Part shown: one piece after another, positions 32,384 to 58,486 of the stretch
Position numbering within the stretch: position 1 is the stretch's first letter
Layout: every line of letters starts with the position of its first letter
Made by a program: the position numbers and the translations under genes
Notes under the pieces: model-generated
Told to the model about the DNA's origin: nothing
Seen by the model: the letters and a program-made list of their open reading frames with translations, nothing else
Database searches by the model: none
From: Candidatus Obscuribacteraceae bacterium
GTDB lineage: Bacteria > Cyanobacteriota > Vampirovibrionia > Obscuribacterales > Obscuribacteraceae
Length of the DNA: 64,000 nucleotides
Reading direction: 5' to 3'
Assembly (NCBI GenBank): GCA_044229845.1
Contig: JBGASG010000002.1
Coordinates: 544,001 to 608,000 of the forward strand

Positions 32384-32415
32384 CAGCGCTATGATACTCA
32401 CAGGGAGAACGAGCG

Positions 32416-33654
32416 TTGGCAATTTCGATTCCTGAGGGTTTCGGGCGCAATGTCGGCCTGATTGCTTACAAAGAGATTCTTTACGGATCTCGCGATCCCG
32501 ATGTGCTGATATACGGCTTGCTGCTGCCCCTGATTCTTTACCCGATCATGTTTATCGGGTCGGGCGAATTTGCCTTCTGGCTGCTCGGTCAATTCGAAAA
32601 ACGCATTGCCACCATCGGCGTCACCTACACTCCCGACCTGCGCTACGAAATCGTCAAACACTCCCTGCAGGAAGTAAAAAACTTCAAGGTCGTCGATTCC
32701 ACAGATCCGCAGTCAGACCTCAAAAGTCATCGCGTCGATGCCGTAGTGATCTTCGATCAAGAGAAGAAACATCGCGTCTTCATCAAACTACCCGGCGCCA
32801 ACTTAATAGACAAAACCAGTCTGCTGGCTATGGCTTCGATCCTCTCCGAACAGGAAAAGCGCATCGACCAAGCAGCGAAGGATGCCGGTATCACCAAAAG
32901 CGACCGCCAGATATTTACGACCAAAACTATCGACGTCGCCCCCAGCACATCGCAACAAAAAGTCGTGCCACTGGAGGAATTGCGAGGTATTCCCGTGGCG
33001 ATCCTGGCTTGCGTACTGCTGGTCTGGGTGCACGTGGCGTTATGCGCAGGACCACCGGCAGCGGTGATGTTTGCCGAAGAGCGCGAAAAGAAGACCCTGG
33101 AGACGACGCTTTTGCTGCCGCCCACCCGCATGGTCGTGGTGCTCGGCAAATTTCTCGCCACCAAGCTGATCGCGCTCGGATCTGGATCTATGTATCTGGT
33201 CGGCTTCGGCATTACGTTTCTCGCCCTGGAGTTTAGCGTGCACGCGCGCACCGGCAAAGGCAGCATCATGGCATCGATGATGCCGCAGGTGGTGGTATCG
33301 CCGGAGTCGTGGGTAATGCTGGCAGTCACCATCTTGCTCTCCAGCGCCGTCTGCGCAGCCGTCTATCTGGCATCTACCGTCAAAGCCAGTACGTTCAAAG
33401 AAGCGCAGGCCTACATCACGGTGCCGGTGCTCTTCTTCAGCTTCATCCCCTTCATGGTGCTGGTGCCGGGCATCGAATTGGATATCTGGACGGCACTGGT
33501 GCCGGTGCTAAATTTGTTTCTGACGCTCAAACGCGGTGAGCCCCACCTGCTCTATACGAGCATCGCCGTCATCTCCATGCTGGGCATCATCATCGGCTGC
33601 CTCTATTTCTGTGCTCACTCACTGAATGTCAAAGCATCACAAAATCTTGGCTGA
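32416..33654 (+). CDS. ABC-2 type exporter permease (NatB-like)
   Basis: KEIL...RD...L, a large extracytoplasmic loop, AEEREKKTLETTLLLP..R..VVLGK and A.TFKEAQ.Y motifs. Confidence 0.85.
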   Translation: MAISIPEGFGRNVGLIAYKEILYGSRDPDVLIYGLLLPLILYPIMFIGSGEFAFWLLGQFEKRIATIGVTYTPDLRYEIVKHSLQEVKNFKVVDSTDPQSDLKSHRVDAVVIFDQEKKHRVFIKLPGANLIDKTSLLAMASILSEQEKRIDQAAKDAGITKSDRQIFTTKTIDVAPSTSQQKVVPLEELRGIPVAILACVLLVWVHVALCAGPPAAVMFAEEREKKTLETTLLLPPTRMVVVLGKFLATKLIALGSGSMYLVGFGITFLALEFSVHARTGKGSIMASMMPQVVVSPESWVMLAVTILLSSAVCAAVYLASTVKASTFKEAQAYITVPVLFFSFIPFMVLVPGIELDIWTALVPVLNLFLTLKRGEPHLLYTSIAVISMLGIIIGCLYFCAHSLNVKASQNLG

Positions 33655-33666
33655 GGTTTAGAAGAT

Positions 33667-34419
33667 TTGTCGATAGAAGTAAAAGATCTGCGCAAGAAAT
33701 TCTTTGACCCCAATCGCGGTGAGTTTTTTGCTGTCGATGGTGTCTCGTTCGATTGTCAGCCGGGTAAAACATTCGGGCTGCTGGGTCCGAACGGCGCCGG
33801 CAAGACTACCATCATGCGCCTGATTGCCACCATTCTCGAGCCGACCTCCGGCACCGTCGTGGTCGAAGGCTTTGATGTGACGAAACAACCGGCGGCGGTT
33901 CGCAAACATATCGGGTTTCTTTCCGCCGACACAGGACTCTACGAGCGCCTGACGCCCCGCGAAATCCTCACCTACTTCGCCCGACTCAATCAAGTGCCGG
34001 AGGCGAAAATCGCGGCTCGCGTCAACGAAGTGATCGAACGACTGGCGATCACTCCTTTTGCTTCAACGCTCTGCGACAAGCTTTCTACGGGCATGAAACA
34101 GCGCGTCTCCATCGCCCGCGCCATTGTGCACGACCCACCGGTTTTGATCCTTGACGAACCGACTTCGGGGCTGGATGTGATCGGTATTCGCGCCATTCAC
34201 GACTTCGTCAATGAGTGCAAGCACAAAAACAAATGCTTGCTCTTCTCCACGCATATCATGGCGGAAGCGGAAAAGTTGTGCGACCAGATTGCCCTGCTGC
34301 ATCACGGCAAGATATTTGCCGTCGGCACCCTCGATGAACTGCGAGCCGAGACCAATGAACATTACCTCGAAGATGTCTTCTTGAAGCTGGTGCCGGAGGG
34401 CGCGGATGAACTGGTCTGA
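33667..34419 (+). CDS. ABC exporter ATP-binding protein (NatA-like)
   Basis: [17 protein letters not shown] (NatA-type signature), [16 protein letters not shown] and STHIM.E.EKLCD. Confidence 0.92.
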
Positions 34420-36373
34420 CATCGGCATAGTCTTCCGCAAAGAACTGCTGCAAACCACGCGCAACAAGAAAACGCTGGTGGTGATGGTGCTGATTTTAAT
34501 CATGCAACCACTGATAGTGGCGCTCGCCGCTAAGGTGCTGGAGAACAGAATTACCAATCGCATGCCGCCGCCTTTTACGCTGATCATCGTCGGAGCTGAT
34601 GCCGAGTGGGTTGCGAAGTGGTTTACCGACAGCAAGGTGATACACACCGACGTGCGCCCTGACGGCAAGCTGCAAACCATACTGGAGCAGGCGGTAGCTA
34701 AGGGCAGCGATAAGATCGTGCTCTCCGTTCCTGCAAAGTTTCGCGAGCAAGTCGAAACCCACGCCGCCAAGGTGCCGGAGCTGGACATTTACGCGGACAA
34801 CCGGCAGGACAACGGACGGCAGATGCGCCTGGTCAACGAGCGCCTGGTTCGCGCCCGCCGCGAATTGTCCGAAGTGATCATGAAAAAGACCGACGTGCCG
34901 GAGGTGCTGCACAGGCAGCTTGATGTTCGTTTGGCTACCGTAGCCAGCAACCAGCAGCGCGCCGGCGCCCTGATCGGCGTCTACCTGCCGATCGCGCTGG
35001 TGATGATGGTGATGACCGTCACTCTATATGCATCGACAGATTTGCTGACCGGTGAGCGAGAACGCGGAACACTAGTGCTTCTGATGGTGTCCCCAGTCGC
35101 GCGCCGAGACATACTAATCGGCAAGATGCTGGTAGTCGTGGGTCTGGCTGCGTTCGCCAGTGCCTTGCTCATTCTGCTCAATGTGGTCTTCCTGCACTTT
35201 ACCGTCCACAAAGCCATTGATACAGCGGGTTTCTTCGACTTTCGCATTCCGTGGAGATCAGCTTTCCTGTCGATTTTGCTGGTCATGCCGCTCGTCCTGT
35301 CGTCCAGCTCAATCTCGATGGCGGTTGCTTCCTACGCGCGCAATTACCAGCAGGCGCAGTCTTATTACACCCTCCTGCTCTTGCTGGCGCTGCTGCCGGC
35401 ATCGGCTCAACTCCTGCCGACCATTGAGTATCCACCGGCTATAGCAATTTTTCCAATCGCCAATATCAGCATTTGTGTGCGCGACCTGTTCACTGGTCAG
35501 TTGCAACCGGGTCTCTTGATTGCGACGGTTGTTTCGTCCTGCCTGTACGCAGCGGGTCTGACTTATGTTGCGCTGCGGCTTTTCGATTCTGAGCACTCCG
35601 TCTTCCCTCAGGACGAGCCCGCGGGAAGCGCTCGTGGCTTCCGGAGACTGACGCTCACCTACCTGAGCTGCGTGTTTCTTTTCTACTTCACGGTCGGTCA
35701 AGCAATTCAGGCGCAGGATGTATTGGTTGGAATCATCGTTTCACAGTTTCTTCTGATTGCCGGACCCAACTTCCTCTACGCCCTCTGGATGAAACTGCCC
35801 GTCAAAGAATTTCTGGGCTTCAAGAAACCTCTCAACTGGCGCTCGCTCGTCGCCGCACCGTTTCTTGCCCCGGCAACCATTGCAGCCAGCAGCGCCCTCA
35901 TGGCAGTGCAGGATCTGTTCTTGCCGTCGCCGAAGGCACTGGAGGAAATGATGATTTCACTGATCATTCCTCCGGGCAAACCGATCTGGTTGGTGTTCGC
36001 GGCGATTGCTGTGACACCGGCGATCTGCGAAGAAATTCTGTTTCGCGGCGCAGTGCAGCGCAGCCTGTTAAAGTCCCTGACACCGCGAGTCGCGCTGATC
36101 TTGACGGCGGTGGCGTTTGGACTTTTTCACATGAGCACATTCAGGTTTCTGCCGACCACTCTGCTCGGACTGGCATTTGGTTATTACTCCTGGCGGCAAA
36201 ATTCCATATACCCGACGATTATTCTGCACGGCTGTCATAACGCGCTGGCTACCGCCATGGTGGTCTACCACCTGAACATCATGTCCGCTCAGGGATTGCT
36301 CGTGCTGGCGGCATCATCGGCAGTGGCGATATTTATTTTGCGTTCGAATCAGCGCCAGTCCGTTCAGGCGTGA
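34406..36373 (+). CDS. NatB-like ABC permease fused to a C-terminal CPBP intramembrane protease
   Basis: GERERGTL.LLM.SPV.R..ILIGK permease motif, then EEILFRG, FGLFH and HGCHN CPBP motifs. Confidence 0.9.
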   Translation: MNWSDIGIVFRKELLQTTRNKKTLVVMVLILIMQPLIVALAAKVLENRITNRMPPPFTLIIVGADAEWVAKWFTDSKVIHTDVRPDGKLQTILEQAVAKGSDKIVLSVPAKFREQVETHAAKVPELDIYADNRQDNGRQMRLVNERLVRARRELSEVIMKKTDVPEVLHRQLDVRLATVASNQQRAGALIGVYLPIALVMMVMTVTLYASTDLLTGERERGTLVLLMVSPVARRDILIGKMLVVVGLAAFASALLILLNVVFLHFTVHKAIDTAGFFDFRIPWRSAFLSILLVMPLVLSSSSISMAVASYARNYQQAQSYYTLLLLLALLPASAQLLPTIEYPPAIAIFPIANISICVRDLFTGQLQPGLLIATVVSSCLYAAGLTYVALRLFDSEHSVFPQDEPAGSARGFRRLTLTYLSCVFLFYFTVGQAIQAQDVLVGIIVSQFLLIAGPNFLYALWMKLPVKEFLGFKKPLNWRSLVAAPFLAPATIAASSALMAVQDLFLPSPKALEEMMISLIIPPGKPIWLVFAAIAVTPAICEEILFRGAVQRSLLKSLTPRVALILTAVAFGLFHMSTFRFLPTTLLGLAFGYYSWRQNSIYPTIILHGCHNALATAMVVYHLNIMSAQGLLVLAASSAVAIFILRSNQRQSVQA

Positions 36374-40313: not shown

Positions 40314-40685
40314 ATGAATAGCAAGAACCTGATTGCGACTGTCGCGTTGGCTTCATTGACCATGCTGCCGGCATTGCCGGTCGAGGCGCAAGGATTTTTC
40401 GATATGCACCAGACCAGCAACATGGGCAACATCAATCGTAAGCAAAGCGAAGTGCGAGCTCGCATCGAGTTCGCTCGCAGCCGTGGTCAGCTAACCGCGT
40501 TCGAATACAATCGCTTGATGCGAGAGTTCAATCAAATAGCACGCATTGAGGACCGATCCAGAACGAACGGACTCAACTGGTATGAACGATCTCAGCTGTT
40601 GAGTCGCCTGGACAATCTCAACCAGCAAGTGACGCGCCAGATGCATGATCGCCAGACGGCAGGTCGCCCGCGTATCTTCTGGTAA
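40314..40685 (+). CDS. Small secreted helical protein
   Basis: GAGGAGG RBS; signal peptide ending VEA-Q; two G.L...E...L helical repeats (GQLTAFEYNRL, GLNWYERSQL). Confidence 0.75.
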   Translation: MNSKNLIATVALASLTMLPALPVEAQGFFDMHQTSNMGNINRKQSEVRARIEFARSRGQLTAFEYNRLMREFNQIARIEDRSRTNGLNWYERSQLLSRLDNLNQQVTRQMHDRQTAGRPRIFW

Positions 40686-40727
40686 GCAAGCGCAAGCAGC
40701 GGCTGCCTGAGCAGTTCGCAAGTAGAC

Positions 40728-40762
40728 CAAAGGGCTCGTCCAGTAAGCGGACGAGCCCTTTG
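40728..40762 (+). terminator. Probable intrinsic terminator (perfect 14-bp stem)
   Basis: caaagggctcgtcc-agtaagc-ggacgagccctttg, 43 nt after the stop at 40685. Confidence 0.75.
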
Positions 40763-40876
40763 CTTCCTGACAGCAACCCGGACAAAAGTTTAACCTTGGG
40801 CGCGGAATCATCTGAGGAACACGGACGTCGAGAGGCCCAGTGCCGCAATGGCAGAGATTTGAATTGAGGAGATACG

Positions 40877-41293
40877 ATGAAAACTACCCTCGCACTGCTT
40901 ATGGCAGCCGCAATTACTATCGGCGGGTTCCAGGCTGCAAATGCACAGAACGCCCCCCTGAACGGCTACGCCAGCAATGGATCTTTTTTCGGCAACCTTC
41001 TGAATGGTGCCGGGTTTAACAATGGCTACAACAACGGCTACAACCCTTATCTGAATGCCGGCTACGGCAACGGATACAACGGTGCGTACGCCGGCAACGG
41101 CAATGGCTATGGATACGGCAACGGTGGCGCCTGCCAGCAGAGACGACATCACAAGAAGAATGCAATCCGCAAAATGCAACGCCGCATGCAAAGACAAGCT
41201 ATGCAAAACCAATATGGTGGCGGATACGGCGGATACGGGAATGGCTGGAACAACGGCTATCAGAATGCAGGCAATGGTCGCTGGGGATTCTAA
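40877..41293 (+). CDS. Secreted Gly/Asn/Tyr-rich low-complexity protein
   Basis: GAGGAG RBS; signal peptide ending ANA-Q; NGY/GYG repeats on both sides of a basic helical segment. Confidence 0.75.
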   Translation: MKTTLALLMAAAITIGGFQAANAQNAPLNGYASNGSFFGNLLNGAGFNNGYNNGYNPYLNAGYGNGYNGAYAGNGNGYGYGNGGACQQRRHHKKNAIRKMQRRMQRQAMQNQYGGGYGGYGNGWNNGYQNAGNGRWGF

Positions 41294-41333
41294 TTAGTTT
41301 CACCACTAACAGATATCCCTGAGATCTAAATGG

Positions 41334-41374
41334 CGAGAACGGCGACGTTTCCTCCGCGCCGTTCTCGTTTCTTT
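41334..41374 (+). terminator. Probable intrinsic terminator
   Basis: cgagaacggcg / cgccgttctcg 11-bp stem followed by tttcttt; separates the GNY-rich gene from the downstream operon. Confidence 0.7.
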
Positions 41375-41494: not shown

Positions 41495-42442
41495 ATGACA
41501 ACGGCACAGACACAACTGCAGCAGGCATCCCCGGTTATCAGCCGGAACAATGTGCTGGCACGTCTGTGGCAGTACCAGCGCGAGCGGTTTCCCGTCTTTG
41601 CTCACGGGTTGTTAGTTGCCGCTTTCAGCTTTTCAGGTGTATGTCTCTCGGCGATCCTGCGTGGCAGCGAGCAGTTGCCTAGCGCTGCCACGCTCTTTGT
41701 CGCCTTTGCTTGCGCTCTCAGTTTCTTCTTCCAATTGAGAGTTGCTGATGAGTTCAAAGACGCGGAAGAGGACGCACAGCACAGACCTTATCGGCCAGTC
41801 CCCCGTGGGCTGGTCAGCCTGGGCGAACTGCGCGCGGTCGCCATTTTGACCGCAATCGGACAGGTTGTCCTCTGTCTGCTTGTTAAACCGGATTTGATAC
41901 CACTTCTGGTCGGAACGTGGGCTTACCTTGGACTGATGACCAAAGAATTCTTCGCGGCAGAATGGTTGCGCAAACACCCGGTCGTCTACATGTGCAGCCA
42001 CATGCTGATCTTGCCGATCATCGATTACTTCATCACCGCCTGCGACTGGCTGCCGGGCAATGCCCCGCATGGGCTGGTCTGGTTTCTCGCAGTCAGTTTC
42101 TTCAATGGTCTGGTCATCGAAATCGGACGCAAGTTGCGCAGTCCGCAAGAAGAGGAAGCCAACGTCGAAACCTACAGCGCCCTCTGGGGACTTAAATCAG
42201 CCAGCTCGATTTGGGTAACGATGATGTTTGTCACTGCAGTGTGCGCCACCATCACTGCCATGAGCTACGGTATGGCACCGATGACCGGCGGCATTCTGGC
42301 GGCGTTGCTGTTGATAATCGCGGTGATGGCACCGAAAACCGCTTCGCGATTCGAGGCGTTGTCGGCCGTCTGGACCTTAGTCCTCTACCTGAGCGTTGGC
42401 ACGGTTCCGATGCTCTGGATCAGATTCCTCTCCGCAAACTAG
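41495..42442 (+). CDS. UbiA-superfamily prenyltransferase-like membrane protein
   Basis: LRVADEFKDAEEDAQHRPYRPVPRG matches the first Asp-rich UbiA motif (.D..D...D....RP.P.G); about 9 TM helices; the second motif is divergent (EIGRK....E....TY). Confidence 0.8.
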   Translation: MTTAQTQLQQASPVISRNNVLARLWQYQRERFPVFAHGLLVAAFSFSGVCLSAILRGSEQLPSAATLFVAFACALSFFFQLRVADEFKDAEEDAQHRPYRPVPRGLVSLGELRAVAILTAIGQVVLCLLVKPDLIPLLVGTWAYLGLMTKEFFAAEWLRKHPVVYMCSHMLILPIIDYFITACDWLPGNAPHGLVWFLAVSFFNGLVIEIGRKLRSPQEEEANVETYSALWGLKSASSIWVTMMFVTAVCATITAMSYGMAPMTGGILAALLLIIAVMAPKTASRFEALSAVWTLVLYLSVGTVPMLWIRFLSAN

Positions 42443-42457
42443 CAAACGAGTGCCATC

Positions 42458-45049
42458 ATGCAATTTGTCATCACCATCGACAACGCGATCACCAACGAAA
42501 ACATGCAACGCCTGGGCGGCAAAGGCAAGGCACTGGCATCGCTTATCAAGGCTGGCTTCTCGGTGCCGGCGTGCATCGCGGTGGTGCCCGAAGCATTCGA
42601 TGGCAATACAGTGAACGGTGAAGCCGCCAAACAAATTGCCGCCTCCGTCGCATCGTTGCGCAGCGGTTTCTTCGCTATTCGCTCCTCTGCTGCAGATGAA
42701 GACGGAACCGCACATTCATTCGCAGGGCAGCTCGAAAGTTTCCTCTGCGTGAAACCGGAGGATGTTCTCCAGAGAGTCATTGACGTCTTCAATTCGGCAT
42801 TTGCAGAACGAGTCATCGCATACAGACAAGAGCATTGCCTGTCGGGCGAGTCCCCGATCCCGACTGTGTTGATTCAGGAAATGGTGCATGCCGATTCGTC
42901 CGGTGTCGCCTTCAGCGCCGACCCAACCGCAAATACCGACCGTTCGGTAATCGGGGCAGTGTACGGGTTGGGAGAGGGACTGGTGTCGGGACAGCTCGAT
43001 GCCGACACATATTTTGTTTCCGGCGAACTCATCGAACGCGACATCGCTAGGAAAACAACCGCCTATCATCTGGCTACCACCGAAAGCGGTGGCATCGAGT
43101 TGCGGGCAGTCGATGAGCTGAGCGCCAGAAAGAGCGCGTTGACCGACGAGCAAATCAAGGCGGTCAGCCAATTGGCAATCGCCTGCGAAGCCCATTTCAA
43201 GACGCCGCAAGATATCGAGTGGGCTTATGCCGAACGTCAACTTTACCTTCTGCAATCGCGCCCGATCACTACGGCGATCTCGCGACCCGCTGCGAAGGAA
43301 GAGTTACGCATATTCGACAACAGCAATATCGGCGAAAGCTATAACGGCGTCACCACTCCGCTCACGTTCAGTTTCGCACGCAGAGCATACGAAAACGTAT
43401 ATCTGCAATTCTGCCGCATCCTGCAAGTCAATGAGAGAACCCTGCAACGAGAAAAGCAGGTCTTCGCCAATATGATCGGCTTGATTCGCGGTCGCATCTA
43501 CTACAACTTGATCAGCTGGTATCGTGTGCTGGCGCTGTTACCCGGTTATGCGTTCAATGCTCCCTTCATGGAGCAAATGATGGGCGTCAAGGAACCGCTT
43601 CCTCAAGAAGTCAAACTCGCGCAGAAGAAGCCGCGACGCCTGGAACGCTGGCTCGATTGCATCGCGCTCGCCTGGTCGCTGCTTGGTCTGATTGCTTCAT
43701 TCGTCACATTGAAATCGCGCATTGCCAAATTCTATGTCCGATTGAATGACGCGTTGAAACCGGTCGAATTGAAAAATATGTCAATCGACCAACTGCTCGG
43801 CTATTACCACTTGCTGGAAGCGAAGCTGCTTTTGCAATGGGACGCGCCTCTGGTCAATGACTTCTTCGCCATGATCTTCTACGGCGTCCTCAAGTCTCTG
43901 ACTCAACTGGTTCTGTGGGATGCGCAATCCAATCTGCATAACGATCTACTTGCCCAGACAGGCGACATTATCAGCGCAGAGCCGGCGGCACGAATCGCAA
44001 AAATGGCTAGGGTGGCGTCAGCGGATCCTTCGCTGGTCGATGTGCTCTGCAACAAGTCGCTGTCAGTGATCGAAAGACGCCTGAAGCAAGAGCCCGAGTT
44101 CAAGACAATGATTGATGCATATCTAGAGAAATTCGGCGACCGTTGCATCGGCGAACTCAAACTTGAAAGTCCGACGCTCCTCGATGACCCGCTGCCCCTT
44201 TTGCGGTCGGTCGGTCAGATGGCATCTCGCATCGCCAGCGGCACCCGCGCGAACCGCCGGCAAGGTCGATTGATCAGACGGCGTGCCGAGCAACGAGTTT
44301 TTGGCGGCGGACGCATGACTCCATGGGAGAAGGCAGGCTACGCCTGGGTGCTGCACAATGCGCGAGAAACAGTGCGCAATCGCGAGAACTTGAGATTCGA
44401 ACGCACCCGAGTCTTCGGACGTGTGCGGCAGATATTTGTGGAGGTCGGCAAACGACTGCAGCAACAGAATTTGATCGACGACTACCGTGATATCTTCTAT
44501 CTCGAGCTGTCCGAGATCATCGGGTTCGTCAATGGCACCGCCACCACCTTGTCACTGCGGTCACTGGTGGCAGTGCGCAAATCCGAATTCGATCAATATC
44601 GCGCCGAGGACGAACCGCCTACCCGCATCGAAATACGCGGCGCCGCAGGTATCCCCGCCGCGACGGCCACTAGATTGGGCAACGAAAGCAAGAGCACGTC
44701 AGCAGAATTGCGCGGCATCGCCTGCTGCCCCGGCGTGGTGCGCGGACCGGTGCGCGTCGTGCATGACCCTAAAGACGCCGTGATTCTGTCCGGCGAAATA
44801 CTTGTCGCCAAGCGCACCGATCCAGGTTGGATAACTTTGTTTCCCGCTGCTTCAGGCTTGCTGGTCGAGCACGGCAGCCTGCTTTCCCACTCGGCGATTG
44901 TGTCGCGCGAACTGGGACTGCCGTCGATAGTGTCGGTTTCGGGCATCTGCGACGAGCTCTCCACCGGCGACATCGTCGAGTTCGACGGCAGCTCCGGCAA
45001 CATTCGCGTAATCGCCAGACACGACGCCGGCACCGCAAGCGTGGGTTAG
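42458..45049 (+). CDS. PEP-utilising enzyme family protein with rifampin phosphotransferase/PigC-like architecture
   Basis: N-terminal ATP-grasp (GGKG, RSSA.DED....SFAGQ, QEMV...SGV.FS, GLGEGLVSG, QDIEWA, LQSRPIT); large helical central domain; C-terminal phospho-His swivel (TDPGW, LSHSAIVSRELGLP); no pyruvate-binding barrel. Confidence 0.88.
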   Translation: MQFVITIDNAITNENMQRLGGKGKALASLIKAGFSVPACIAVVPEAFDGNTVNGEAAKQIAASVASLRSGFFAIRSSAADEDGTAHSFAGQLESFLCVKPEDVLQRVIDVFNSAFAERVIAYRQEHCLSGESPIPTVLIQEMVHADSSGVAFSADPTANTDRSVIGAVYGLGEGLVSGQLDADTYFVSGELIERDIARKTTAYHLATTESGGIELRAVDELSARKSALTDEQIKAVSQLAIACEAHFKTPQDIEWAYAERQLYLLQSRPITTAISRPAAKEELRIFDNSNIGESYNGVTTPLTFSFARRAYENVYLQFCRILQVNERTLQREKQVFANMIGLIRGRIYYNLISWYRVLALLPGYAFNAPFMEQMMGVKEPLPQEVKLAQKKPRRLERWLDCIALAWSLLGLIASFVTLKSRIAKFYVRLNDALKPVELKNMSIDQLLGYYHLLEAKLLLQWDAPLVNDFFAMIFYGVLKSLTQLVLWDAQSNLHNDLLAQTGDIISAEPAARIAKMARVASADPSLVDVLCNKSLSVIERRLKQEPEFKTMIDAYLEKFGDRCIGELKLESPTLLDDPLPLLRSVGQMASRIASGTRANRRQGRLIRRRAEQRVFGGGRMTPWEKAGYAWVLHNARETVRNRENLRFERTRVFGRVRQIFVEVGKRLQQQNLIDDYRDIFYLELSEIIGFVNGTATTLSLRSLVAVRKSEFDQYRAEDEPPTRIEIRGAAGIPAATATRLGNESKSTSAELRGIACCPGVVRGPVRVVHDPKDAVILSGEILVAKRTDPGWITLFPAASGLLVEHGSLLSHSAIVSRELGLPSIVSVSGICDELSTGDIVEFDGSSGNIRVIARHDAGTASVG

Positions 45050-45058
45050 GAGAGCATC

Positions 45059-46186
45059 ATGTCCGTTTCTCAAACAGTCTTCCGCCCCGAATCAGCAGCC
45101 GCCATCTACCCGCGTATCCGCTATGCGCAATGCTGGGAAGACGCCGACATCCTGCTCGAAGCCCTTGCCGTTCAACCGGGTGACGTTTGCCTGTCAATCG
45201 CGTCAGGAGGCGAAAACTCGCTCTCGCTGTTAAGCCAGTCGCCAGCCAAGGTGATTGCAGTCGACTGCAATCCCTCGCAGCTAGCCATCTTGGAACTGAA
45301 AGCCGCCGCGTTCCGCAACCTCAGTCATGCCGAACTGCTGCGCTTCCTCGGCTCGCATCCGGCAACCCCGTCCGAGCGCCGCGAATTCTACACCTACTGC
45401 GCCCCCGACCTGGCGCCCGCAACAGCCCGCTACTTCCGAGAAAACGTTCACCTCATTGAGGCGGGTATCAACCACGCCGGCAAGTTCGAGGACTATTTCA
45501 GGCTGTTTCGCCAGACGCTGCTGCCCCTGATCCACGACCGGAGGACAGTTGAACAACTGTGTGCCCCGCGGTCTCTGGAGGCTCGCCGTGCGTTTTACTT
45601 AGAGGTATGGAATACCTGGCGCTGGAGAGCGCTGTTCTCAATGTTTTTCTCAAGGAAGGTTATGGGCAACGCCGGACGCGATCCAGCATTATTCAAATAT
45701 GTCGAAGGAGATTGCTCTTCGCGTATTTTGGGTCGCGTCCGGCACGGGCTCACGGAAGTGGCACCGGAATCAAACCCATATCTTCAGTGGATTCTTTTTG
45801 GCGAACATCGCAAAGGCGTGTTGCCCCATGCACTGCGTGAAGAAAACTTCCAGGCTATCCGCGACAACCTCAGCAAACTGGAATGGCATTGCCAGACGAT
45901 CGAAGAGTATTTGGAAGCCAATCCGACAACCCGAGTCGACTGCTTCAACCTGAGTGACATCTTCGAATACATGAGCGAAGCTGAATATTCCGAGATGCTG
46001 GATACACTGATCGGTGCCTCCGCTGACGGTGCCCGATTGGCTTACTGGAACATGCTGGTAGACCGCCAGGCGCCAGCAGCCTACGCTGATCAAATCACCA
46101 CCCACGAACAGAAGTCGCAAGAGCTACTGGCAGCTGACAAGGCATTTTTCTACAGTGCCTTCAGACTGGAAACGGTACACAGATGA
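45059..46186 (+). CDS. DUF3419 / BtaA-like SAM-dependent (3-amino-3-carboxypropyl) transferase
   Basis: RYAQCWED, SIASGGENSLSLL, VDCNPSQL..LELK, G.FE.Y, NPYL and LSDIFEYM motifs. Confidence 0.82.
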   Translation: MSVSQTVFRPESAAAIYPRIRYAQCWEDADILLEALAVQPGDVCLSIASGGENSLSLLSQSPAKVIAVDCNPSQLAILELKAAAFRNLSHAELLRFLGSHPATPSERREFYTYCAPDLAPATARYFRENVHLIEAGINHAGKFEDYFRLFRQTLLPLIHDRRTVEQLCAPRSLEARRAFYLEVWNTWRWRALFSMFFSRKVMGNAGRDPALFKYVEGDCSSRILGRVRHGLTEVAPESNPYLQWILFGEHRKGVLPHALREENFQAIRDNLSKLEWHCQTIEEYLEANPTTRVDCFNLSDIFEYMSEAEYSEMLDTLIGASADGARLAYWNMLVDRQAPAAYADQITTHEQKSQELLAADKAFFYSAFRLETVHR

Positions 46187-47508
46187 ACGCCTGGATCGCG
46201 ATAGTTTCTGTCCTCGCCGTTCTGCTCGCGTCGATCTCACTTTTGCGCTGGTATCAGATATCACAAAAACCGCACCCGGAAATTGTGCGCAAGCTTTTGC
46301 ACGTGATTATGGGTTCGGTCACCATCACGTTTCCGTGGGTGTTTCACGAAACCTCGCCGGTCTGGCTGTTAGCCCTTGTCTCCGCGTGCACGCTCGGCGC
46401 CATCAAATACCAACCTCGCCTGAAGGAATCAGTCGGCAGCGTCGTTTGCGCAGTCGAGCGCAGAACGTACGGAGAGATCTGCTTCCCACTGGCTGTTGCG
46501 ATTCTCTTCAGCGTCGCACACACGCAGCCGCTTCTCTATTGCGTACCGATGGCAATTCTCTCAATTGCCGATGCTTCATCGGCGCTCGTCGGCATGTTTT
46601 ACGGCAAGCACAAATATTCAACCAGTGAAGGCAACAAAACCGCAGAGGGCTCGTTGACGTTCTTCGCCATCGCCAGCCTGGCTACTCTGGTTCCGCTTCT
46701 GGCTATGGGAGTCGGTATCGAGCGCGCAGCGCTCATCTCGCTGCTGCTCGGCTGTCTGGTCACCCTATTTGAAGCGATCGCGTGGCAAGGTCTGGACAAC
46801 CTCTTCATTCCGCTGAGCGCATACGCGATGCTGCTCACTGGTCTCACCACTTCAATCGGAATGCTTGCCGAGCAACTTGGTGTCGCCTGTCTGCTGCTTC
46901 TGGTCGCGATACTTCTGCGCGGCCGCACCAAGCTCAACGACAGCGCCGCACTCGGTGCCGCGCTTTTCTGCTACCTGAGTTGGGCAATTGGCGGCTGGAT
47001 GTGGAGCATTGCACCATTGACGGTGCTGGCGGCGCATCGCCTGATCTTGCCGGCAAAGTATCGCAGACAAGACGCCCGACCGCACACGATTCACGAAGTA
47101 ATCTGGGTGGCTTCAGCAGGCTTCTTCTGGCTGTGGCTGAGCAAGACAACCGCGCAGTCATTCCTTCTCCCGTACACTCTCACCTATGCCGCACAGCTGG
47201 CCTTGATTGGCTGCGCACACGCCACCATGCCACAAGCCCAGTCTTTGAAAACCAACGCTGCAGTGCAATCATGTTTTGTGGCGTGGAGCGCGTTGTTTCT
47301 CCCGTTCGCGCTGACTACCGGTTTCTCGCCGGAGGCAGTCGCGTTTTCATTCTGCTCCCTGCTCGCCATGCTGATTTGCGCCGCCGCCTTCCTGGCGCTG
47401 CACCGCGGCGAGGCAAATCAATTTCACAGCGTCACGCGCTGGGCTCAGCAAACAGGCGTGGTGGCAGCCTGCTCGGCCGCGGTCTTTGTAATTCTCCAGT
47501 TGACGTAA
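46183..47508 (+). CDS. Phytol/dolichol kinase-like (CTP-dependent) integral membrane protein with an extra C-terminal membrane domain
   Basis: E..RKLLHV..G, RRTYGE..FP, ADASSALVG..YGK, KT.EGS and G.DNL.IPL motifs of the SEC59/VTE5 family, followed by about 7 more TM helices. Confidence 0.8.
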   Translation: MNAWIAIVSVLAVLLASISLLRWYQISQKPHPEIVRKLLHVIMGSVTITFPWVFHETSPVWLLALVSACTLGAIKYQPRLKESVGSVVCAVERRTYGEICFPLAVAILFSVAHTQPLLYCVPMAILSIADASSALVGMFYGKHKYSTSEGNKTAEGSLTFFAIASLATLVPLLAMGVGIERAALISLLLGCLVTLFEAIAWQGLDNLFIPLSAYAMLLTGLTTSIGMLAEQLGVACLLLLVAILLRGRTKLNDSAALGAALFCYLSWAIGGWMWSIAPLTVLAAHRLILPAKYRRQDARPHTIHEVIWVASAGFFWLWLSKTTAQSFLLPYTLTYAAQLALIGCAHATMPQAQSLKTNAAVQSCFVAWSALFLPFALTTGFSPEAVAFSFCSLLAMLICAAAFLALHRGEANQFHSVTRWAQQTGVVAACSAAVFVILQLT

Positions 47509-47521
47509 GGAACTCACCATC

Positions 47522-48415
47522 ATGCCTGTACAAACTCAGATCACCAGAAGCGAACCAGACAAGGTCATCAGTCTGCCTGGTGCCGGTTGCTCGCTTTGGT
47601 GGCGCCACACTCCCGGACTCGATGGAGCAAAGCTCGGCTTCATCGGCCGGTTTGCCGCCGACAGCGCAACAGCATCGACACATATCCTCGATTACGCCTG
47701 CGACCTATTAAAAGAGAATGGCGTCAATCTAGCAGTCGGTCCAGTTGACGGCAACACCTGGAACAGCTATCGCTATACCACCTGGTCATCCGGCCAAGCA
47801 CCATTCTGTCTGGAGCCGCAACATCCCGCGCAGTATCCTCGGTATTTCCAGCACGCCGGGTTCTCGCCGCTGGCGACCTACTACTCGTCAATCACCCATG
47901 ACTTGCACAGCGACAGAAAAGTGGTGGCAAAGCTAGAGGAGAAACTGGCGCGAGCCGGCGTCACCATCAGACAGATCGATGCCGCCAATTTTGACGGCGA
48001 ACTGCTCAAAGTTTTCCAACTGTGCGAGCAAAGCTTCAAAGACAATTTTCTATATTCGCCAATCACGCAAGCTGAGTTTCTTCAGCAGTACGCCGCCGTC
48101 AAGCCGCTGATTCAGCCGCCTCTGGTGCTGCTGGCGGAGGTCGACAGCGAGCTGGTCGGCTTTGTCTTCGCGCTGCCCAATATCAACGATGCTGAACGCC
48201 GGACGATCATAGTAAAGACTCTGGCTCGCTTGCCGCAACGCGAGCTTGCCGGTCTCGGGCACTTGCTTTTGGCACAAGTCCACGAAGCAGCGCAGCAGAT
48301 GGGTTTCAAGCAAGCCATTCATGCCCTCATGCATGAGTCGAACAACTCGCTGGCGCTGAGCAATCGCTATGCCGCCAAGTTTCGTGAGTATGCGCTGTTT
48401 GCGAGGAGCCTCTAA
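47522..48415 (+). CDS. GNAT-fold (N-acyltransferase-like) protein
   Basis: G.IGRF, GPVDGNTW.SYR, EP..P..Y...F..AGF and G.VF..P...TII.KTLA.....GLG motifs, consistent with a tandem GNAT fold. Confidence 0.65.
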   Translation: MPVQTQITRSEPDKVISLPGAGCSLWWRHTPGLDGAKLGFIGRFAADSATASTHILDYACDLLKENGVNLAVGPVDGNTWNSYRYTTWSSGQAPFCLEPQHPAQYPRYFQHAGFSPLATYYSSITHDLHSDRKVVAKLEEKLARAGVTIRQIDAANFDGELLKVFQLCEQSFKDNFLYSPITQAEFLQQYAAVKPLIQPPLVLLAEVDSELVGFVFALPNINDAERRTIIVKTLARLPQRELAGLGHLLLAQVHEAAQQMGFKQAIHALMHESNNSLALSNRYAAKFREYALFARSL

Positions 48416-48417
48416 TC

Positions 48418-49965
48418 ATGAATGTCTACAAGAAACTGCTAGAGCAACTGGCGATGCGCCCCGATGCCACCGCAATCATCGATACGAAGGGTGACAGCGT
48501 CAGGCACACCTCCTATGCACAATTGGTTCATCAAATTGAACAGGCGGCGTCCAACCTCGAACGCAAGGGCGTATACAACGGCGACACAGTTCTGCTGTTG
48601 CACGGACTGAGCCTGGAACTGTACGTGGCACTGCTGGCGCTTCTCAAAATCGGTGCCACGGCCATGGTCATCGACCCTTCGATGCCAGCCGAAGCTCTCA
48701 AGCGTTGCTGCCAGATCGCGCAACCAAAAGCAATTATCGGCGGTGCCAAAGGTTTGGTGTTCGCGTTGTTCAATCAGGACCTGCGATCGATACCGCGTCG
48801 CATTGGATTGAGCCGCATTTTGCGCAGCGCTCAAGGCGACCTCAGCGAAACCTTCATCGCCTGGCCCGAGACACCTGCGTTGATCACGTTCACCAGTGGC
48901 AGCACCGGCATACCCAAAGCGATCTGCCGCAGTCATCAGTTTCTTCTCGACCAGCACGAAGCATTGCACAACGCCCTCAACTTGCAATCAGGTGCAGTAC
49001 AACTGGTGACGCTGCCTGTCTTCGTGCTCGCCAATCTGGCATCAGGCGTGACCAGTGTTCTGCCCAACACGGATATCAGCTTGCCTGGTCAGGTCAATGC
49101 GCGCGCCATCATCAACTACATACAGACAACCGGTGTCACCGAGATTCTCGCATCGCCTGCCTTTGTCGAACGACTCTGCGATCATGCGCTGGCTCATCGT
49201 CGCGCACTCCCAACTATCGAGCGCATCTTCACCGGTGGCGCACCGGTCCTGCCTCGCAGCTACCGCAACATGCAGGAGGTCTTCCCACGTGCCACCATTT
49301 ACGGTGTCTATGGTTCAACAGAAGCAGAGCCGATAGCAAAGATAAATCTCGACGAGATTAGCGCCGAAGATATGGAGGCAATGTCGAACGGCGCGGGATT
49401 GCTGGCGGGGTACTGTGATGGTTCCGTCCAGCTAGCCATCATCGATAGCAACTGGCAGCCGACACCTGAGCAACAGTGCGACTTGAAAGCACATGCTTTA
49501 GGTGTGCGACAAGTGGGCGAAATAATTGTCGCCGGCAGACATGTGGTCAAGTCGTATTTAAACACCGAGCAAAACGCCGAAAGTAAAATCCACCTGAATG
49601 GCGAGACGCTCAGCCCCACGGTGTGGCATCGCACCGGCGACGCCGGTTATCTGGACGAACAGGGACGCCTCTGGTTGCTGGGACGGGTCTCCACGCGTAT
49701 CGATGACGAATTCGGTGTGCTCTACCCGCTGGCATGCGAAGCGCAAGTGATCGAACAGACTGCAGTGAAACGCGCAGCCATCCTCAATCGCGGCTCCATG
49801 CGGACGATGGTCATCGAAAGCCGCGACAGAGCTGCGGCTCCGGCGCTCAAGCGCATCGCCAGCCGCGCGCATATCCAACGCATAGTTTTCGTGGACAGGT
49901 TGCCAGTCGACAAGCGGCACAACTCGAAAATCGACTATCGCGCCTTGCATAAAGTCCTATCTTGA
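48418..49965 (+). CDS. AMP-dependent synthetase/ligase (ANL superfamily, OleC-like)
   Basis: FTSGSTGIPK, YGSTEAEPI, WHRTGDAG, LLGR and C-terminal PVDKRHNSKIDY motifs. Confidence 0.88.
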   Translation: MNVYKKLLEQLAMRPDATAIIDTKGDSVRHTSYAQLVHQIEQAASNLERKGVYNGDTVLLLHGLSLELYVALLALLKIGATAMVIDPSMPAEALKRCCQIAQPKAIIGGAKGLVFALFNQDLRSIPRRIGLSRILRSAQGDLSETFIAWPETPALITFTSGSTGIPKAICRSHQFLLDQHEALHNALNLQSGAVQLVTLPVFVLANLASGVTSVLPNTDISLPGQVNARAIINYIQTTGVTEILASPAFVERLCDHALAHRRALPTIERIFTGGAPVLPRSYRNMQEVFPRATIYGVYGSTEAEPIAKINLDEISAEDMEAMSNGAGLLAGYCDGSVQLAIIDSNWQPTPEQQCDLKAHALGVRQVGEIIVAGRHVVKSYLNTEQNAESKIHLNGETLSPTVWHRTGDAGYLDEQGRLWLLGRVSTRIDDEFGVLYPLACEAQVIEQTAVKRAAILNRGSMRTMVIESRDRAAAPALKRIASRAHIQRIVFVDRLPVDKRHNSKIDYRALHKVLS

Positions 49966-50021
49966 GCACTGTCGGGTAAGATAGATCTGGAAACACCCTC
50001 TCCGACTCACGGCCATTGCAC

Positions 50022-50738
50022 ATGGCTCACCAACAGATCGACAAGACCGACGAGTCTTCGCAGCGCGTTGCGGATCTGATCGCCGCATGCGCACACGATT
50101 TGCGTGCGCCGCTTTCCGGGAATGCATCGCTTCTGGAATTGATGCTCGCCGAAGAGTTCGGATCGTTGCCCGACCAGGCGAGGGATGCATTGCAAGTGAT
50201 GTTGTGCGGCAATCGCAGCATGCACCACACTCTGCAGCTTCTGGTCGATGTATTCCAGCTTGAAGCAAACCAGGGCGAGCTGCTGCACATCGAGAATCAA
50301 ACTGTGTCCGGCGCTGTTCAAAGCGCCGCAGAATCTATGGATAGTGAATCGCAGGCACGAGTCAATTTAGATGTCGCACCGCACATAAGCGTGCGAGCGG
50401 ATCGAGAGGCACTGCAAAAGGTTTTTTCGTTGTTGTTTGCCAGTTGCCTGCGCAAGAACGCACCGGAACAATGCCTGCATGTCACAGCCGCTTCCACGGG
50501 TATCCAGACACGCATCGATATTGCCGGCGCGGCAGTGCCACTGCAAAACCTCCCTGATTGCGAGGCGTTCAAAAGCTTGTGCGGCAGTGCGCCGCGAAAA
50601 AAGCTACCGGCCGGGTCCGTGCTTTCGTTCTATCTCTCTGCGCTCATGGTGCAGCTGCAGCGCGGACAAATGGTGGCAGAACGACACGCCGATGACACCA
50701 CTACCGTTAGTATTACTTTGCCGGCGGGTGCACCATGA
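50022..50738 (+). CDS. Sensor-less histidine kinase-like protein with a degenerate ATPase domain
   Basis: H-box AHDLRAPLS is present; the N-box Asn, DxGxG and GxGLGL motifs are not (LFASCLR, IAGAA, GSVLSF). Confidence 0.7.
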   Translation: MAHQQIDKTDESSQRVADLIAACAHDLRAPLSGNASLLELMLAEEFGSLPDQARDALQVMLCGNRSMHHTLQLLVDVFQLEANQGELLHIENQTVSGAVQSAAESMDSESQARVNLDVAPHISVRADREALQKVFSLLFASCLRKNAPEQCLHVTAASTGIQTRIDIAGAAVPLQNLPDCEAFKSLCGSAPRKKLPAGSVLSFYLSALMVQLQRGQMVAERHADDTTTVSITLPAGAP

Positions 50739-51388
50739 AAACCGCCACTGTGTTTGTCATCGAAGACGACGAGCTGATGCTGGCTGGACTGCGGGCCTCG
50801 CTCGGACGACTCCATCATCTGGAAGTCTTAGGCAGCGCCATGGACGGTCGGCAGGGTCTGGACAACGTCCTCAGGATGCGGCCAGACATTGCCATCGTAG
50901 ACATTGGTCTACCTTTCATGGACGGCATCGAAGTCACCGAACGCATCAAGCATCAACTCGATCACTGCAAAGTGCTGATGCTCACATCACACGATGACGA
51001 CAACAACTTGTTTTCTGCCTTCGCCGCCGGCGCCGATGGATATGTATTGAAAGACTCCGGCATCCAGACCCTGGATCTGGCAATTAACACGGTGCTGGGC
51101 GGCGCCGTTTGGTTGGACTCACGCATTGCCAAACGTGTGTTGCAATACGCGATTGTATCCGCCGCACTGTCACCACCGGCTGCCGTCGAACCGATCATCA
51201 AACTGACTGAGCGAGAAACGGAAGTTCTACGCTTCATGTGCGACGGCATGACTAACGCGGAGATCGCCGAGAGGTTGAATCTGACCACCGAAACCGTCAA
51301 AACTCACGTCAGCAAAATCATGCACAAGCTGGCAGTCAACGATCGCACGCAAGCCGCTGTTAAAGCCGTGCGCTCACACCTGATCTAG
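50735..51388 (+). CDS. NarL/FixJ family response regulator (REC + LuxR HTH)
   Basis: IEDD, VDIGLP.MDG, LTS, GYVLK and LTERETEVL...G.TN.EIA..L.....TVKTHVS. Confidence 0.95.
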   Translation: MKTATVFVIEDDELMLAGLRASLGRLHHLEVLGSAMDGRQGLDNVLRMRPDIAIVDIGLPFMDGIEVTERIKHQLDHCKVLMLTSHDDDNNLFSAFAAGADGYVLKDSGIQTLDLAINTVLGGAVWLDSRIAKRVLQYAIVSAALSPPAAVEPIIKLTERETEVLRFMCDGMTNAEIAERLNLTTETVKTHVSKIMHKLAVNDRTQAAVKAVRSHLI

Positions 51389-57301: not shown

Positions 57302-58486
57302 GTGAAGTCGCTGAGCATACTGGGATCTACCGGCTCGATCGGCAGGCAAACGTTGGACATTGTGCGTGCGCATGTCCATTCCGGACAGCTGCGCGTCGTC
57401 GCACTGGCCGCCGGCGAAAATAGCCTGCCCCTGCTCGCCGAGCAAATCAAGCAGTTTCGTCCTGAGATGGTCTGTCTGCCCAGTGCCGCTTCTCTGGAGA
57501 AACTCAAGGAAGCCTGCGGCATCGATTCGAAATCGACGGAATTTGTCTTTGGCGCCGAGGGGTTGGAACAGGTGGCAGCGCACCCGAACACGGACATCGT
57601 CGTCTCGGGCGTTGTGGGATTCCTGGGCGTCAAACCGACCGCCGCCGCCATCCGCGCCGGCAAGACAATCGCGCTCGCCAACAAAGAGACCCTGGTTGCG
57701 GCCGGCGCCGCCATCATGCCCATGGTCAATAAGTACGGCGCCCGCATAATTCCTGTCGACAGCGAGCACTCGGCCATCTATCAATCACTCACCGGATATG
57801 GTGCCCGCGATCTGAGATCAATTTGGCTCACCGCATCTGGTGGCCCCTTCCGCACCTGGACGCGCGAAGCGATCAGCAATGCCACCGTGGACGATGCGCT
57901 CAAGCATCCCAACTGGTCCATGGGACAGAAGATCACCATCGACTCCGCAACCCTGATGAATAAAGGGTTGGAGATCATCGAAGCGCGCTGGCTGTTTGAT
58001 GTTTCTGCCGAGAAGATCAAAGTGATCATTCATCCGCAATCTATATTGCATTCGGCTGTCGAATTCGTGGATGGATCGGTCGTCGGGCAGATGGGTATTC
58101 CCGATATGCACCTGCCGATTCACTATGCGCTTTTCTGGCCGGAGCGGACCGAGGGCAAAGCCGGCGTGATTCCGCCGCTCGACTTAGTCAAGCTGGGGAC
58201 TCTTACTTTCGAAGAGCCGGATACCGAGCGTTTCCCTTGCCTGGCGCTTGCACAAGAGGCCGCAAGACATGACGACACCCGCCCCTGTGTTTTAAACGCA
58301 GCCAATGAAGTGATAGTCGAAGCTGTATTGAAGCGCCGGCTACGGTTTGCGGACATACCCCGATATGTGGAAAAAGTCTTGGATCTTCACCAACCCATTA
58401 CCGATCCCACTCTTGACGATATACTTGAGTGCGATTCATGGGCAAGAACGGCGGCAGCCGACCAAATTGGAGCACTAGCGAAATGA
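57302..58486 (+). CDS. dxr: 1-deoxy-D-xylulose-5-phosphate reductoisomerase
   Basis: ILGSTGSIG.QTL, LANKE, PVDSEHSAI, LTASGGPF, HPNWSMG.KITIDSATLMNKGLE and LNAANE. Confidence 0.97.
   Translation: MKSLSILGSTGSIGRQTLDIVRAHVHSGQLRVVALAAGENSLPLLAEQIKQFRPEMVCLPSAASLEKLKEACGIDSKSTEFVFGAEGLEQVAAHPNTDIVVSGVVGFLGVKPTAAAIRAGKTIALANKETLVAAGAAIMPMVNKYGARIIPVDSEHSAIYQSLTGYGARDLRSIWLTASGGPFRTWTREAISNATVDDALKHPNWSMGQKITIDSATLMNKGLEIIEARWLFDVSAEKIKVIIHPQSILHSAVEFVDGSVVGQMGIPDMHLPIHYALFWPERTEGKAGVIPPLDLVKLGTLTFEEPDTERFPCLALAQEAARHDDTRPCVLNAANEVIVEAVLKRRLRFADIPRYVEKVLDLHQPITDPTLDDILECDSWARTAAADQIGALAK

Follow-up and report, generated by a model that had tools for sequence, protein, structure and literature searches.

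Six co-oriented genes on the forward strand of a 64,000-nucleotide stretch of DNA from a Candidatus Obscuribacteraceae bacterium (the window, taken at its full length) raise the question of what an operon combining UbiA-, RPH/PigC-, BtaA-, prenol kinase-, GNAT- and OleC-like proteins might make. The six reading frames proved intact, with intergenic gaps of 15, 9, −4 (ATGA), 13 and 2 nt, as originally described. The family assignments also held in family scans and profile comparison: the scans returned UbiA for gene 1, PPDK_N and PEP-utilizers domains for gene 2, DUF3419 for gene 3, no family for gene 4, a weak GNAT match below cut-off for gene 5 and AMP-binding for gene 6. Partners of the btaB, oleABD and pig/red types were, as originally stated, absent from the window (47 other window ORFs and the remaining scanned ORFs).

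Upstream of the operon lies a GC-rich hairpin with a T-rich tail (~41332–41374, + strand; stem ~41332–41369), a candidate terminator of the upstream gene. Its stability is unusual (z = −3.58, with 0 of 200 shuffles equally stable), but the terminator scanner did not list the stem, and contigs from two RNA libraries cross it; the hairpin itself is thus upheld, whereas the insulation of the operon ascribed to it is not. No Rfam element was found between 40000 and 52000, the hairpin included, and promoter matches for the operon region did not exceed chance level. Pieces of the operon were present in RNA libraries of four studies, with possible DNA carry-over and a cover too patchy to compare the genes or to demonstrate transcription.

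Comparison across genomes revealed that the operon is a shortened version of a cassette that has seven genes and occurs in many kinds of bacteria. Among 80 GTDB loci, which are best matches and hence biased toward the close subfamily, 52 carried all six genes, more than chance would give, mostly in the window order or with the gene 5–6 pair shifted upstream. The co-occurrence across phyla that the original prediction had proposed to check was found in 33 of 38 fully flanked GTDB loci, spanning about a dozen phyla, and in 21 of 22 long metagenome loci. The DGGGP-synthase-like UbiA and the RPH-type dikinase form the cassette core, occurring jointly in 19/20 regions of a phylum sample and in 58/59 metagenome loci having downstream sequence. 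A class I HMG-CoA-reductase-like gene usually heads the cassette (49 of 56 loci). The six-gene unit is therefore correct as to its members, but the usual cassette has seven genes, one of which is missing in the window. Distribution is patchy, with one plasmid copy and one integrase-linked copy; cultured carriers include Roseinatronobacter sp. S2, Microcoleus sp. FACHB-1515 and Brevibacillus laterosporus B9.

The earlier statement that no characterised pathway combines these families gained support, the cassette appearing to represent a conserved and undescribed pathway. A literature search, with most subscription journals and all supplements outside its coverage, returned no description of it. 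The accessible text of PMC6107057, PMC11334938 and PMC10865984 does not describe the cassette, and that of PMC7923214 names DUF3419 solely as a gene flanking the chlorosphaerolactylate cluster; a paper on C. difficile hex genes (PMC10128005) was, in its accessible part, irrelevant to the cassette. The novelty lies in the combination of genes, as every single enzyme family is already known.

Cassette copies differ in several of their parts. Genes 5 and 6 relocate as a pair among loci, and gene 5 or the pair is missing from several loci with UbiA and the dikinase (L070, L117, L118, L122, L125 and L129). The gene-4 kinase was found in 115 of 193 loci and a YegS/DAGK kinase in 8, never both in one locus. 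CdsA, a CDP-alcohol transferase, PS decarboxylase and two desaturases are partners in 2 distant loci, a CarS-like gene follows the dikinase in 2 loci, MMPL neighbours occur in 9, and a fatty-acid hydroxylase and a desaturase are found among the neighbours in some. Fusions link the kinase to UbiA (L073) and the ANL enzyme to UbiA (L114, L115). Accessory variants comprise a P450 (9 loci), a sulfotransferase (3 loci) and an aminotransferase fusion (only 2 loci), all of them compatible with a secondary metabolite. Across the neighbour clusters of 91 loci, no PKS, NRPS, carrier protein, exporter or regulator recurred.

Gene 1 (41495–42442, + strand; PF01040) encodes a membrane transferase that belongs to a distinct subfamily of the UbiA family. 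The best PDB matches of its profile were DGGGP synthase and chlorophyll synthase, the former match being weak (E = 9e-5 over 95 columns); both of these enzymes prenylate oxygen. The first Asp-rich motif is kept as DEFKD..D, whereas the second, which DGGGP synthases also possess, is replaced by GRKxR, with its G, R and K in 55/55 sequences (D85, E86, K88, D89, D93, R212 and K213 are invariant in 55/55), so that something other than prenyl transfer may be catalysed. The archaeal ether-lipid line (DGGGP synthase, CarS) thus resembles the cassette in its UbiA enzyme and in the occasional CarS-like gene, but differs in that GGGP synthase is not among the recurring neighbours and that the cassette has an obligatory dikinase partner.

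That partner, gene 2 (42458–45049, + strand), shares with rifampin phosphotransferase (RPH) and PigC the order of ATP-grasp, substrate and C-terminal phospho-His domains, consistent with a small-molecule dikinase. R75, R642, E643, R646 and H811 were present in 50/50 sequences and K22 in 49/50; the first five correspond to RPH Arg117, Arg666, Glu667, Lys670 and His825, giving the RPH phosphotransfer set with Arg at the Lys670 position. Nevertheless, gene 2 scored 302.7 bits against the RPH family (cut-off 999), does not reach the >42% identity to RPH-Lm that marks clade A, and scored 323 and 335 bits against the PigC and RedH models (cut-offs 1300 and 1350). Its substrate domain is largely unaligned to RPH, N-terminal part included, and kin sequences sit on long branches in a quick dikinase tree.

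The seventh gene encodes a class I enzyme (E = 5e-88 against an archaeal enzyme) that PF00368 covers over almost the whole model, with a score below the TIGR00533 cut-off. The catalytic Glu, Lys, Asp and His are kept in 53/53 copies. In contrast, the Ser684 position is Glu or Asp (Glu counted in 53/53 copies), and the Lys735 position is hydrophobic and never Lys in the 53 copies; according to the accessible text of PMC9500038, Lys735 binds the terminal carboxylate of HMG. None of five cassette hosts checked had HMG-CoA synthase, placing the reductase-like enzyme outside the mevalonate pathway, and none had a mevalonate kinase over cut-off. A canonical mevalonate role was rejected on these grounds, the replaced pocket residues included. 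PF00368 had no match in 9 of 10 cassette-bearing genomes of the host class (the window genome and eight kin; completeness 86–99%). The other six genes persist in this lineage, an observation that counts against the ether model developed below.

Gene 3 (45059–46186, + strand; PF11899, E = 1.8e-69) is, judging from its family, a probable aminocarboxypropyl transferase, although its class I SAM fold fits aminocarboxypropyl and methyl transfer alike. It is a full-length homologue (28%) of a rhizobial DUF3419 protein encoded before a methyltransferase gene. The BtaA/BtaB betaine-lipid (DGTS) pathway, in which diacylglycerol is the BtaA substrate (accessible text of PMC10685587), differs in having BtaB: no BtaB-like gene was detected in the operon, among recurring neighbours or in the genome (one rhizobial query; genome 88% complete). 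The subfamily motifs of gene 3 also differ (ASAGDN, LSDIFEY, YWNM), and its partners are genes for UbiA, the dikinase and the reductase.

Gene 4 (46183–47508, + strand) is assigned as a phytol/dolichol/DAG-kinase-type membrane protein by profile comparison, homologue names and atlas leads. A kinase-type region (residues ~1–215) carries RKxxH, D..AA..G, KSxEGS and DNL, which we take to be VTE5/SEC59/Dgk1-type kinase motifs, and aligned (hhalign 99.7%) to a cyanobacterial match of 210 residues, presumably a phytol kinase. Homologues are annotated at source as "phytol kinase" or "diacylglycerol/polyprenol kinase". The C-terminal membrane extension appears dispensable; several homologues lack this half. 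A VTE5–VTE6 (DUF92) fusion was also considered and rejected, as DUF92 gave weak partial matches in 4 of 49 homologues and its profile aligned over only 37 columns, within the N-terminal half. Neither gene 3 nor gene 4 matched a solved structure by sequence, and fold searches yielded nothing beyond generic SAM and tandem-GNAT folds.

Gene 5 (47522–48415, + strand) had been called a GNAT; the family stands, but rather than a generic member it is a tandem-GNAT acyltransferase of the YghO/ceramide-synthase type. It aligned to E. coli YghO over its full length (hhalign 99.05% over 284 columns; BLAST 3e-12; identity 22–25%), and its model (pLDDT 93.8) shows a tandem GNAT fold. yghO itself adjoins spt, ACP, epimerase and fatty acyl-AMP ligase genes, and synteny with the Caulobacter ceramide locus described in the accessible part of PMC9393093 makes YghO a likely orthologue of bacterial ceramide synthase (bCerS). 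The same text reports that a sphingosine-kinase-related protein phosphorylates ceramide, and on that basis a ceramide-type backbone fits the YegS kinases and YghO equally well, which speaks against the ether model. Gene 6 (48418–49965, + strand; AMP-binding) encodes an ANL-family acid adenylating enzyme of the PRK09274/OleC-like clade, with adenylation motifs conserved among homologues. It scores against the OleC models of the OleABCD system, but at 243 and 220 bits, below the cut-offs of 900 and 850, and the window has no oleABD. As in the bacterial ceramide locus (Spt, ACP, ACP synthetase, bCerS/YghO, CerR and CpgB), the YghO-type enzyme adjoins an adenylating enzyme, and some cassette copies have lipid kinase and CDP-alcohol transferase neighbours. 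Unlike that locus, the cassette and its recurring neighbours lack Spt, ACP and CerR, and UbiA, dikinase, reductase and BtaA-like genes are added.

The families swapped in among cassette copies handle diacylglycerol-, phosphatidate- or ceramide-type lipids, pointing to a lipid pathway, and gene content suggests that the product is probably a membrane lipid. Of the two products originally envisaged, a new lipid is thus supported, whereas the partner exchanges seen in distant loci make a prenylated secondary metabolite less favoured. The exchanges that involve head-group enzymes are not independent observations: all stem from a small number of loci within a single branch of one phylum. As to structure, we tentatively propose an ether-linked, two-tailed backbone with an unmethylated homoserine or phosphate head, each step being deduced from homology and genomic neighbourhood. 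Where the seventh gene is present, its HMG-CoA-reductase-like product would convert a hydrophobic acyl-CoA, not HMG-CoA, into a long-chain alcohol, which the dikinase would (pyro)phosphorylate through its phospho-His to yield a donor. UbiA would move this chain onto a hydroxyl of a glycerol-type acceptor, forming the ether, after which a fatty acid activated by the ANL enzyme would be added as the second chain by the YghO-like GNAT. Gene 4 could phosphorylate or recycle the diacylglycerol-like product; alternatively, the BtaA-like enzyme could add a SAM-derived aminocarboxypropyl (homoserine) head, left unmethylated. With the first step lost in the window lineage, the alcohol must have another source, perhaps MEP-pathway prenyl alcohols or diphosphates (dxr lies in the window). 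UbiA enzymes depend on diphosphates of the activated kind (allylic or anomeric). Since a saturated alkyl phosphate donates poorly, ether formation would require an allylic alcohol or new chemistry. In myxobacteria, the elbB–E ether-lipid genes follow a ligase, reductase and acyltransferase logic (ElbD) resembling that of the cassette; the enzyme families of elbB–E and of OleABCD differ from those of the cassette.

The tandem GNAT could instead serve a ceramide-like lipid made without serine palmitoyltransferase, in which reductase, dikinase and UbiA would provide a long-chain amino alcohol, ANL and the YghO-like enzyme would attach an N-acyl chain to it, and its 1-OH would be decorated by the kinases and the BtaA-like enzyme. 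The full-length homology to YghO, the match between yghO neighbours and the Caulobacter gene set (PMC9393093, accessible part), the joint relocation of genes 5 and 6, the hydroxylase and desaturase neighbours and a strictly conserved acidic position within the pocket of the reductase that could bind an amine all fit this reading. We nonetheless find it unlikely: the usual cassette has no amine-donating enzyme beyond the rare aminotransferase fusion, UbiA and the dikinase are kept in several loci without gene 5 or the pair, identity to YghO is low, and the genome has two distant Spt-like matches (28–32%) on other contigs. The phospholipid head-group enzymes of distant copies and the missing biosynthetic, carrier, export and regulatory neighbours make it quite unlikely that the product is a lipophilic secondary metabolite, prenylated, condensed in PigC fashion and optionally oxidised or sulfated; the patchy distribution, the plasmid and integrase-linked copies and the P450 and sulfotransferase accessories agree with such a product, as do the PigC and RedH scores, which nevertheless fall far under their cut-offs.

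Loss of the reductase, together with long branches of kin dikinases and insertions that split some kin copies, could also mean that the cassette of the window lineage is a decaying or repurposed remnant. This seems improbable, since none of the six frames is disrupted, the phosphotransfer residues of the window dikinase are kept, a same-genus genome retains the genes at 93–99.8% identity, the six-gene form occurs in two families, and pieces appear in RNA libraries, DNA carry-over being possible. Finally, an isoprenoid route, in which a standard prenyltransferase is supplied either by a genuine HMG-CoA reductase or by a salvage line of fused phytol kinase and phytyl-phosphate kinase, is very improbable: the class I affiliation of the reductase, the phytol-kinase-like gene 4 and the DUF92 matches are outweighed by the replaced HMG-pocket residues, the missing HMG-CoA synthase, the short DUF92 alignment and the exchange of gene 4 for YegS, or its loss, in some loci.

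How bacteria synthesise many ether and amino lipids is still an open question, and the cassette offers a compact candidate for such synthesis that can be tested by expression. It also places one orphan clade of RPH-like dikinases in a gene context, and one clade of bacterial "HMG-CoA reductase" annotations probably works outside the mevalonate pathway. It is conceivable, though doubtful, that the ether model describes a bacterial ether-lipid route without any step of the Agps, Elb or PlsA/Ger routes, running from the reductase through an (allylic) fatty alcohol and the dikinase to a UbiA-formed ether. If true, this route would span about a dozen phyla, soil Acidobacteria and Verrucomicrobia among them, and orphan ether and homoserine lipids of the environment might originate from it.

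We re-derived the open reading frames in the window and recovered the same six genes as in the original prediction (41495–49965, + strand), with identical gaps of 15, 9, −4, 13 and 2 nt. Pfam assigned UbiA to gene 1, PPDK_N and PEP-utilizers to gene 2, DUF3419 to gene 3 and AMP-binding to gene 6, with no match for gene 4 and a sub-threshold GNAT match for gene 5. None of the six proteins reached the cut-off of any NCBIfam model, the best scores of genes 2 and 6 being 755 bits for PRK06241 (cut-off 883) and 394 bits for PRK09274 (cut-off 478). The hairpin upstream of gene 1 (~41332–41374) is real, but the insulation of the operon ascribed to it is unproven, because contigs of two RNA libraries span it. 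Ahead of the operon, 40314–41293 (+) encodes two small proteins that begin with what resembles a signal peptide and match no Pfam family; the second, with abundant Gly/Asn/Tyr repeats, has the top contig depth in three of four RNA libraries, a measure that cannot rank genes. Fifty nucleotides past gene 6, on the operon strand, lie a HisKA-only kinase and a NarL/LuxR-type response regulator (50016–51388, +), a pair that does not recur at other cassette loci. One RNA-library contig connects 49962 to 51388 (short side 22 letters), a weak hint of a related strain without this pair. At 31775–36373 (+) lie genes for ABC-2 transporters that include Rce1-like (CAAX protease) domains, in one case fused to the permease.

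The six genes co-occur across phyla. A gene-3 alignment, scanned against the species genomes of GTDB, gave at least 545 relatives among 599 stretches listed; in the best 80, which we examined, all six genes were present in 52, and in 33 of the 38 loci with full 10-kb flanks. By record title, a few of whose bin labels may be wrong, the loci belong to Verrucomicrobia, Acidobacteria, Gemmatimonadota, Rhodothermales, Planctomycetota, Chloroflexota, Cyanobacteria, Proteobacteria, Geobacteraceae, Armatimonadota and Eisenbacteria. A UbiA alignment, used independently on metagenomes, found the set complete in 21 of 22 loci with >8.5 kb downstream, and two plasmid-database records (Roseinatronobacter sp. 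S2 and Brevibacillus laterosporus B9) share the gene order. The distribution is patchy: within the host phylum, the UbiA profile matched at E ≤ 1e-30 in 39 of 301 genomes, 14 of them strongly. The host probably belongs to this phylum: one source name labels homologues of its kin Melainabacteria, and the phylum sample also takes in cyanobacteria at GTDB genus level. In a 2-Mb genome of the host's class (G065), the six-gene cassette adjoins an integrase and a HipA-like gene (L131:4761–7120); the UbiA gene occurs in 9 of 123 genomes of the family to which G065 belongs. A variant (L040:4665–9931, L076 and L046) carries extra genes ahead of the DUF3419 gene: a class III aminotransferase fusion, a second PEP-utilising enzyme and a DUF4440 protein.

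Gene 2 has the domain order of RPH and the residues that RPH requires for phosphotransfer (PMC4844700); the same paper treats distant RPH-like clades as dikinases for other substrates. At E ≤ 1, the only solved relatives that the gene 1 profile matched were DGGGP synthase (E 9e-5) and chlorophyll synthase (E 2e-3); basic residues replace its second Asp-rich motif. The gene 3 product and a rhizobial DUF3419 protein, encoded ahead of a methyltransferase, align over their full length; BtaA couples homoserine from SAM to diacylglycerol (PMC10685587). The window's genome holds a second, distant DUF3419 gene (26%; G000:C21:7021–7929, L024), clustered with genes for a DoxX-like protein, a methyltransferase and DUF2071; G022, another compared genome, has a similar cluster. 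The N-terminal half of gene 4 is of the phytol/polyprenol/diacylglycerol kinase type; profile comparison rejected a complete DUF92 domain as its C-terminal half. Four cyanobacterial genomes lack gene 4 in the operon, and three of these hold a full-length copy elsewhere, the fourth none. Gene 5 is a tandem GNAT homologous to YghO across 284 columns. In an E. coli strain with an intact locus, yghO adjoins spt, ACP, epimerase and fatty acyl-AMP ligase genes, and Caulobacter bcerS has comparable neighbours (PMC9393093). Gene 6 is an OleC-like ANL enzyme, and genes 5 and 6 shift position among loci as a pair.

The commonest additional neighbour, immediately upstream of UbiA, encodes a homologue of class I HMG-CoA reductase; among loci with enough sequence, 49 of 56 from GTDB and 54 of 61 from metagenomes have it. 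A search for PF00368 detected no copy in the window's genome or in eight of nine cassette-bearing relatives. When aligned to solved enzymes, all 53 reductase copies retain the catalytic Glu, Lys, Asp and His. At three further positions, in human numbering, Glu replaces Ser684 and one of Met, Val, Ala, Thr or Phe replaces Lys735 in all 53, and Arg590 is retained in 35. A distant reductase clade has Asp and Ala at the first two. Lys735 forms a salt bridge to the terminal carboxylate of HMG and Ser684 makes one of the polar contacts (PMC9500038). In five reductase-bearing genomes, neither HMG-CoA synthase nor mevalonate kinase scored above cut-off, with positive controls detected. The cassette reductase probably acts on another acyl-CoA, more hydrophobic than HMG-CoA.

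Partner genes change in distant copies. Of 43 places matching the UbiA profile in the host phylum, we surveyed 20, from 18 genomes; UbiA and the dikinase stood together in 19, and L121 had UbiA alone. Across 193 loci, gene 4 was present in 115 and never together with a YegS/DAGK kinase, which occurred in eight loci, all without gene 4. MMPL genes were found in nine loci, a CarS-like gene in two, and CdsA, CDP-alcohol transferase and PS decarboxylase with two desaturase-type genes in two. The loci with swapped partners all stem from a single branch and are not independent. Fusions joined ANL to UbiA in two loci and a kinase to UbiA in one GTDB locus (L073:11110–12798). In the latter fusion the UbiA half reaches 148 bits against PRK13592; its UbiA relatives are common in metagenomes and are labelled mostly 4-hydroxybenzoate polyprenyltransferase. 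At five distant loci (L114, L115, L128, L132 and L133), AurF-type diiron genes follow the dikinase alongside MMPL transporters.

The product is likely a membrane lipid, mainly because the swapped-in families have diacylglycerol-, phosphatidate- or ceramide-type molecules as substrates. A secondary metabolite is less probable, since neither a scaffold synthase nor a carrier protein is a recurrent neighbour of the loci. For a membrane lipid, the reductase would convert an acyl-CoA to an alcohol, the dikinase would activate it, and UbiA would join the activated chain to a glycerol-type acceptor as an ether; the ANL and YghO-like enzymes might then add a second chain, and the head would be phosphate via gene 4 or unmethylated homoserine via gene 3. 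The leaving group is the weak point of this ether route, which requires an allylic or otherwise activated donor. The reductase is gone from the window's genome, and its donor may therefore be isoprenoid; dxr lies at 57302–58483. A ceramide-like product would use identical genes to build an amide backbone, but its amine source is missing. Decay of the cassette in the window's lineage is a possible reading, against which stand the intact reading frames and dikinase residues of the window copy.

At least half of the sampled words occurred in 14 sequencing runs, chiefly metagenomes of sludge and bioreactors; 11 of these runs may be the source. Contigs of four of six RNA-recorded runs cover 9–21 of 30 bins, which is compatible with cassette expression but also with DNA carry-over. 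The cassette misses a defining feature of every known system considered. No description of the gene combination turned up in the searchable full texts, which include few subscription papers. The cassette is real and widespread, and apparently undescribed so far.
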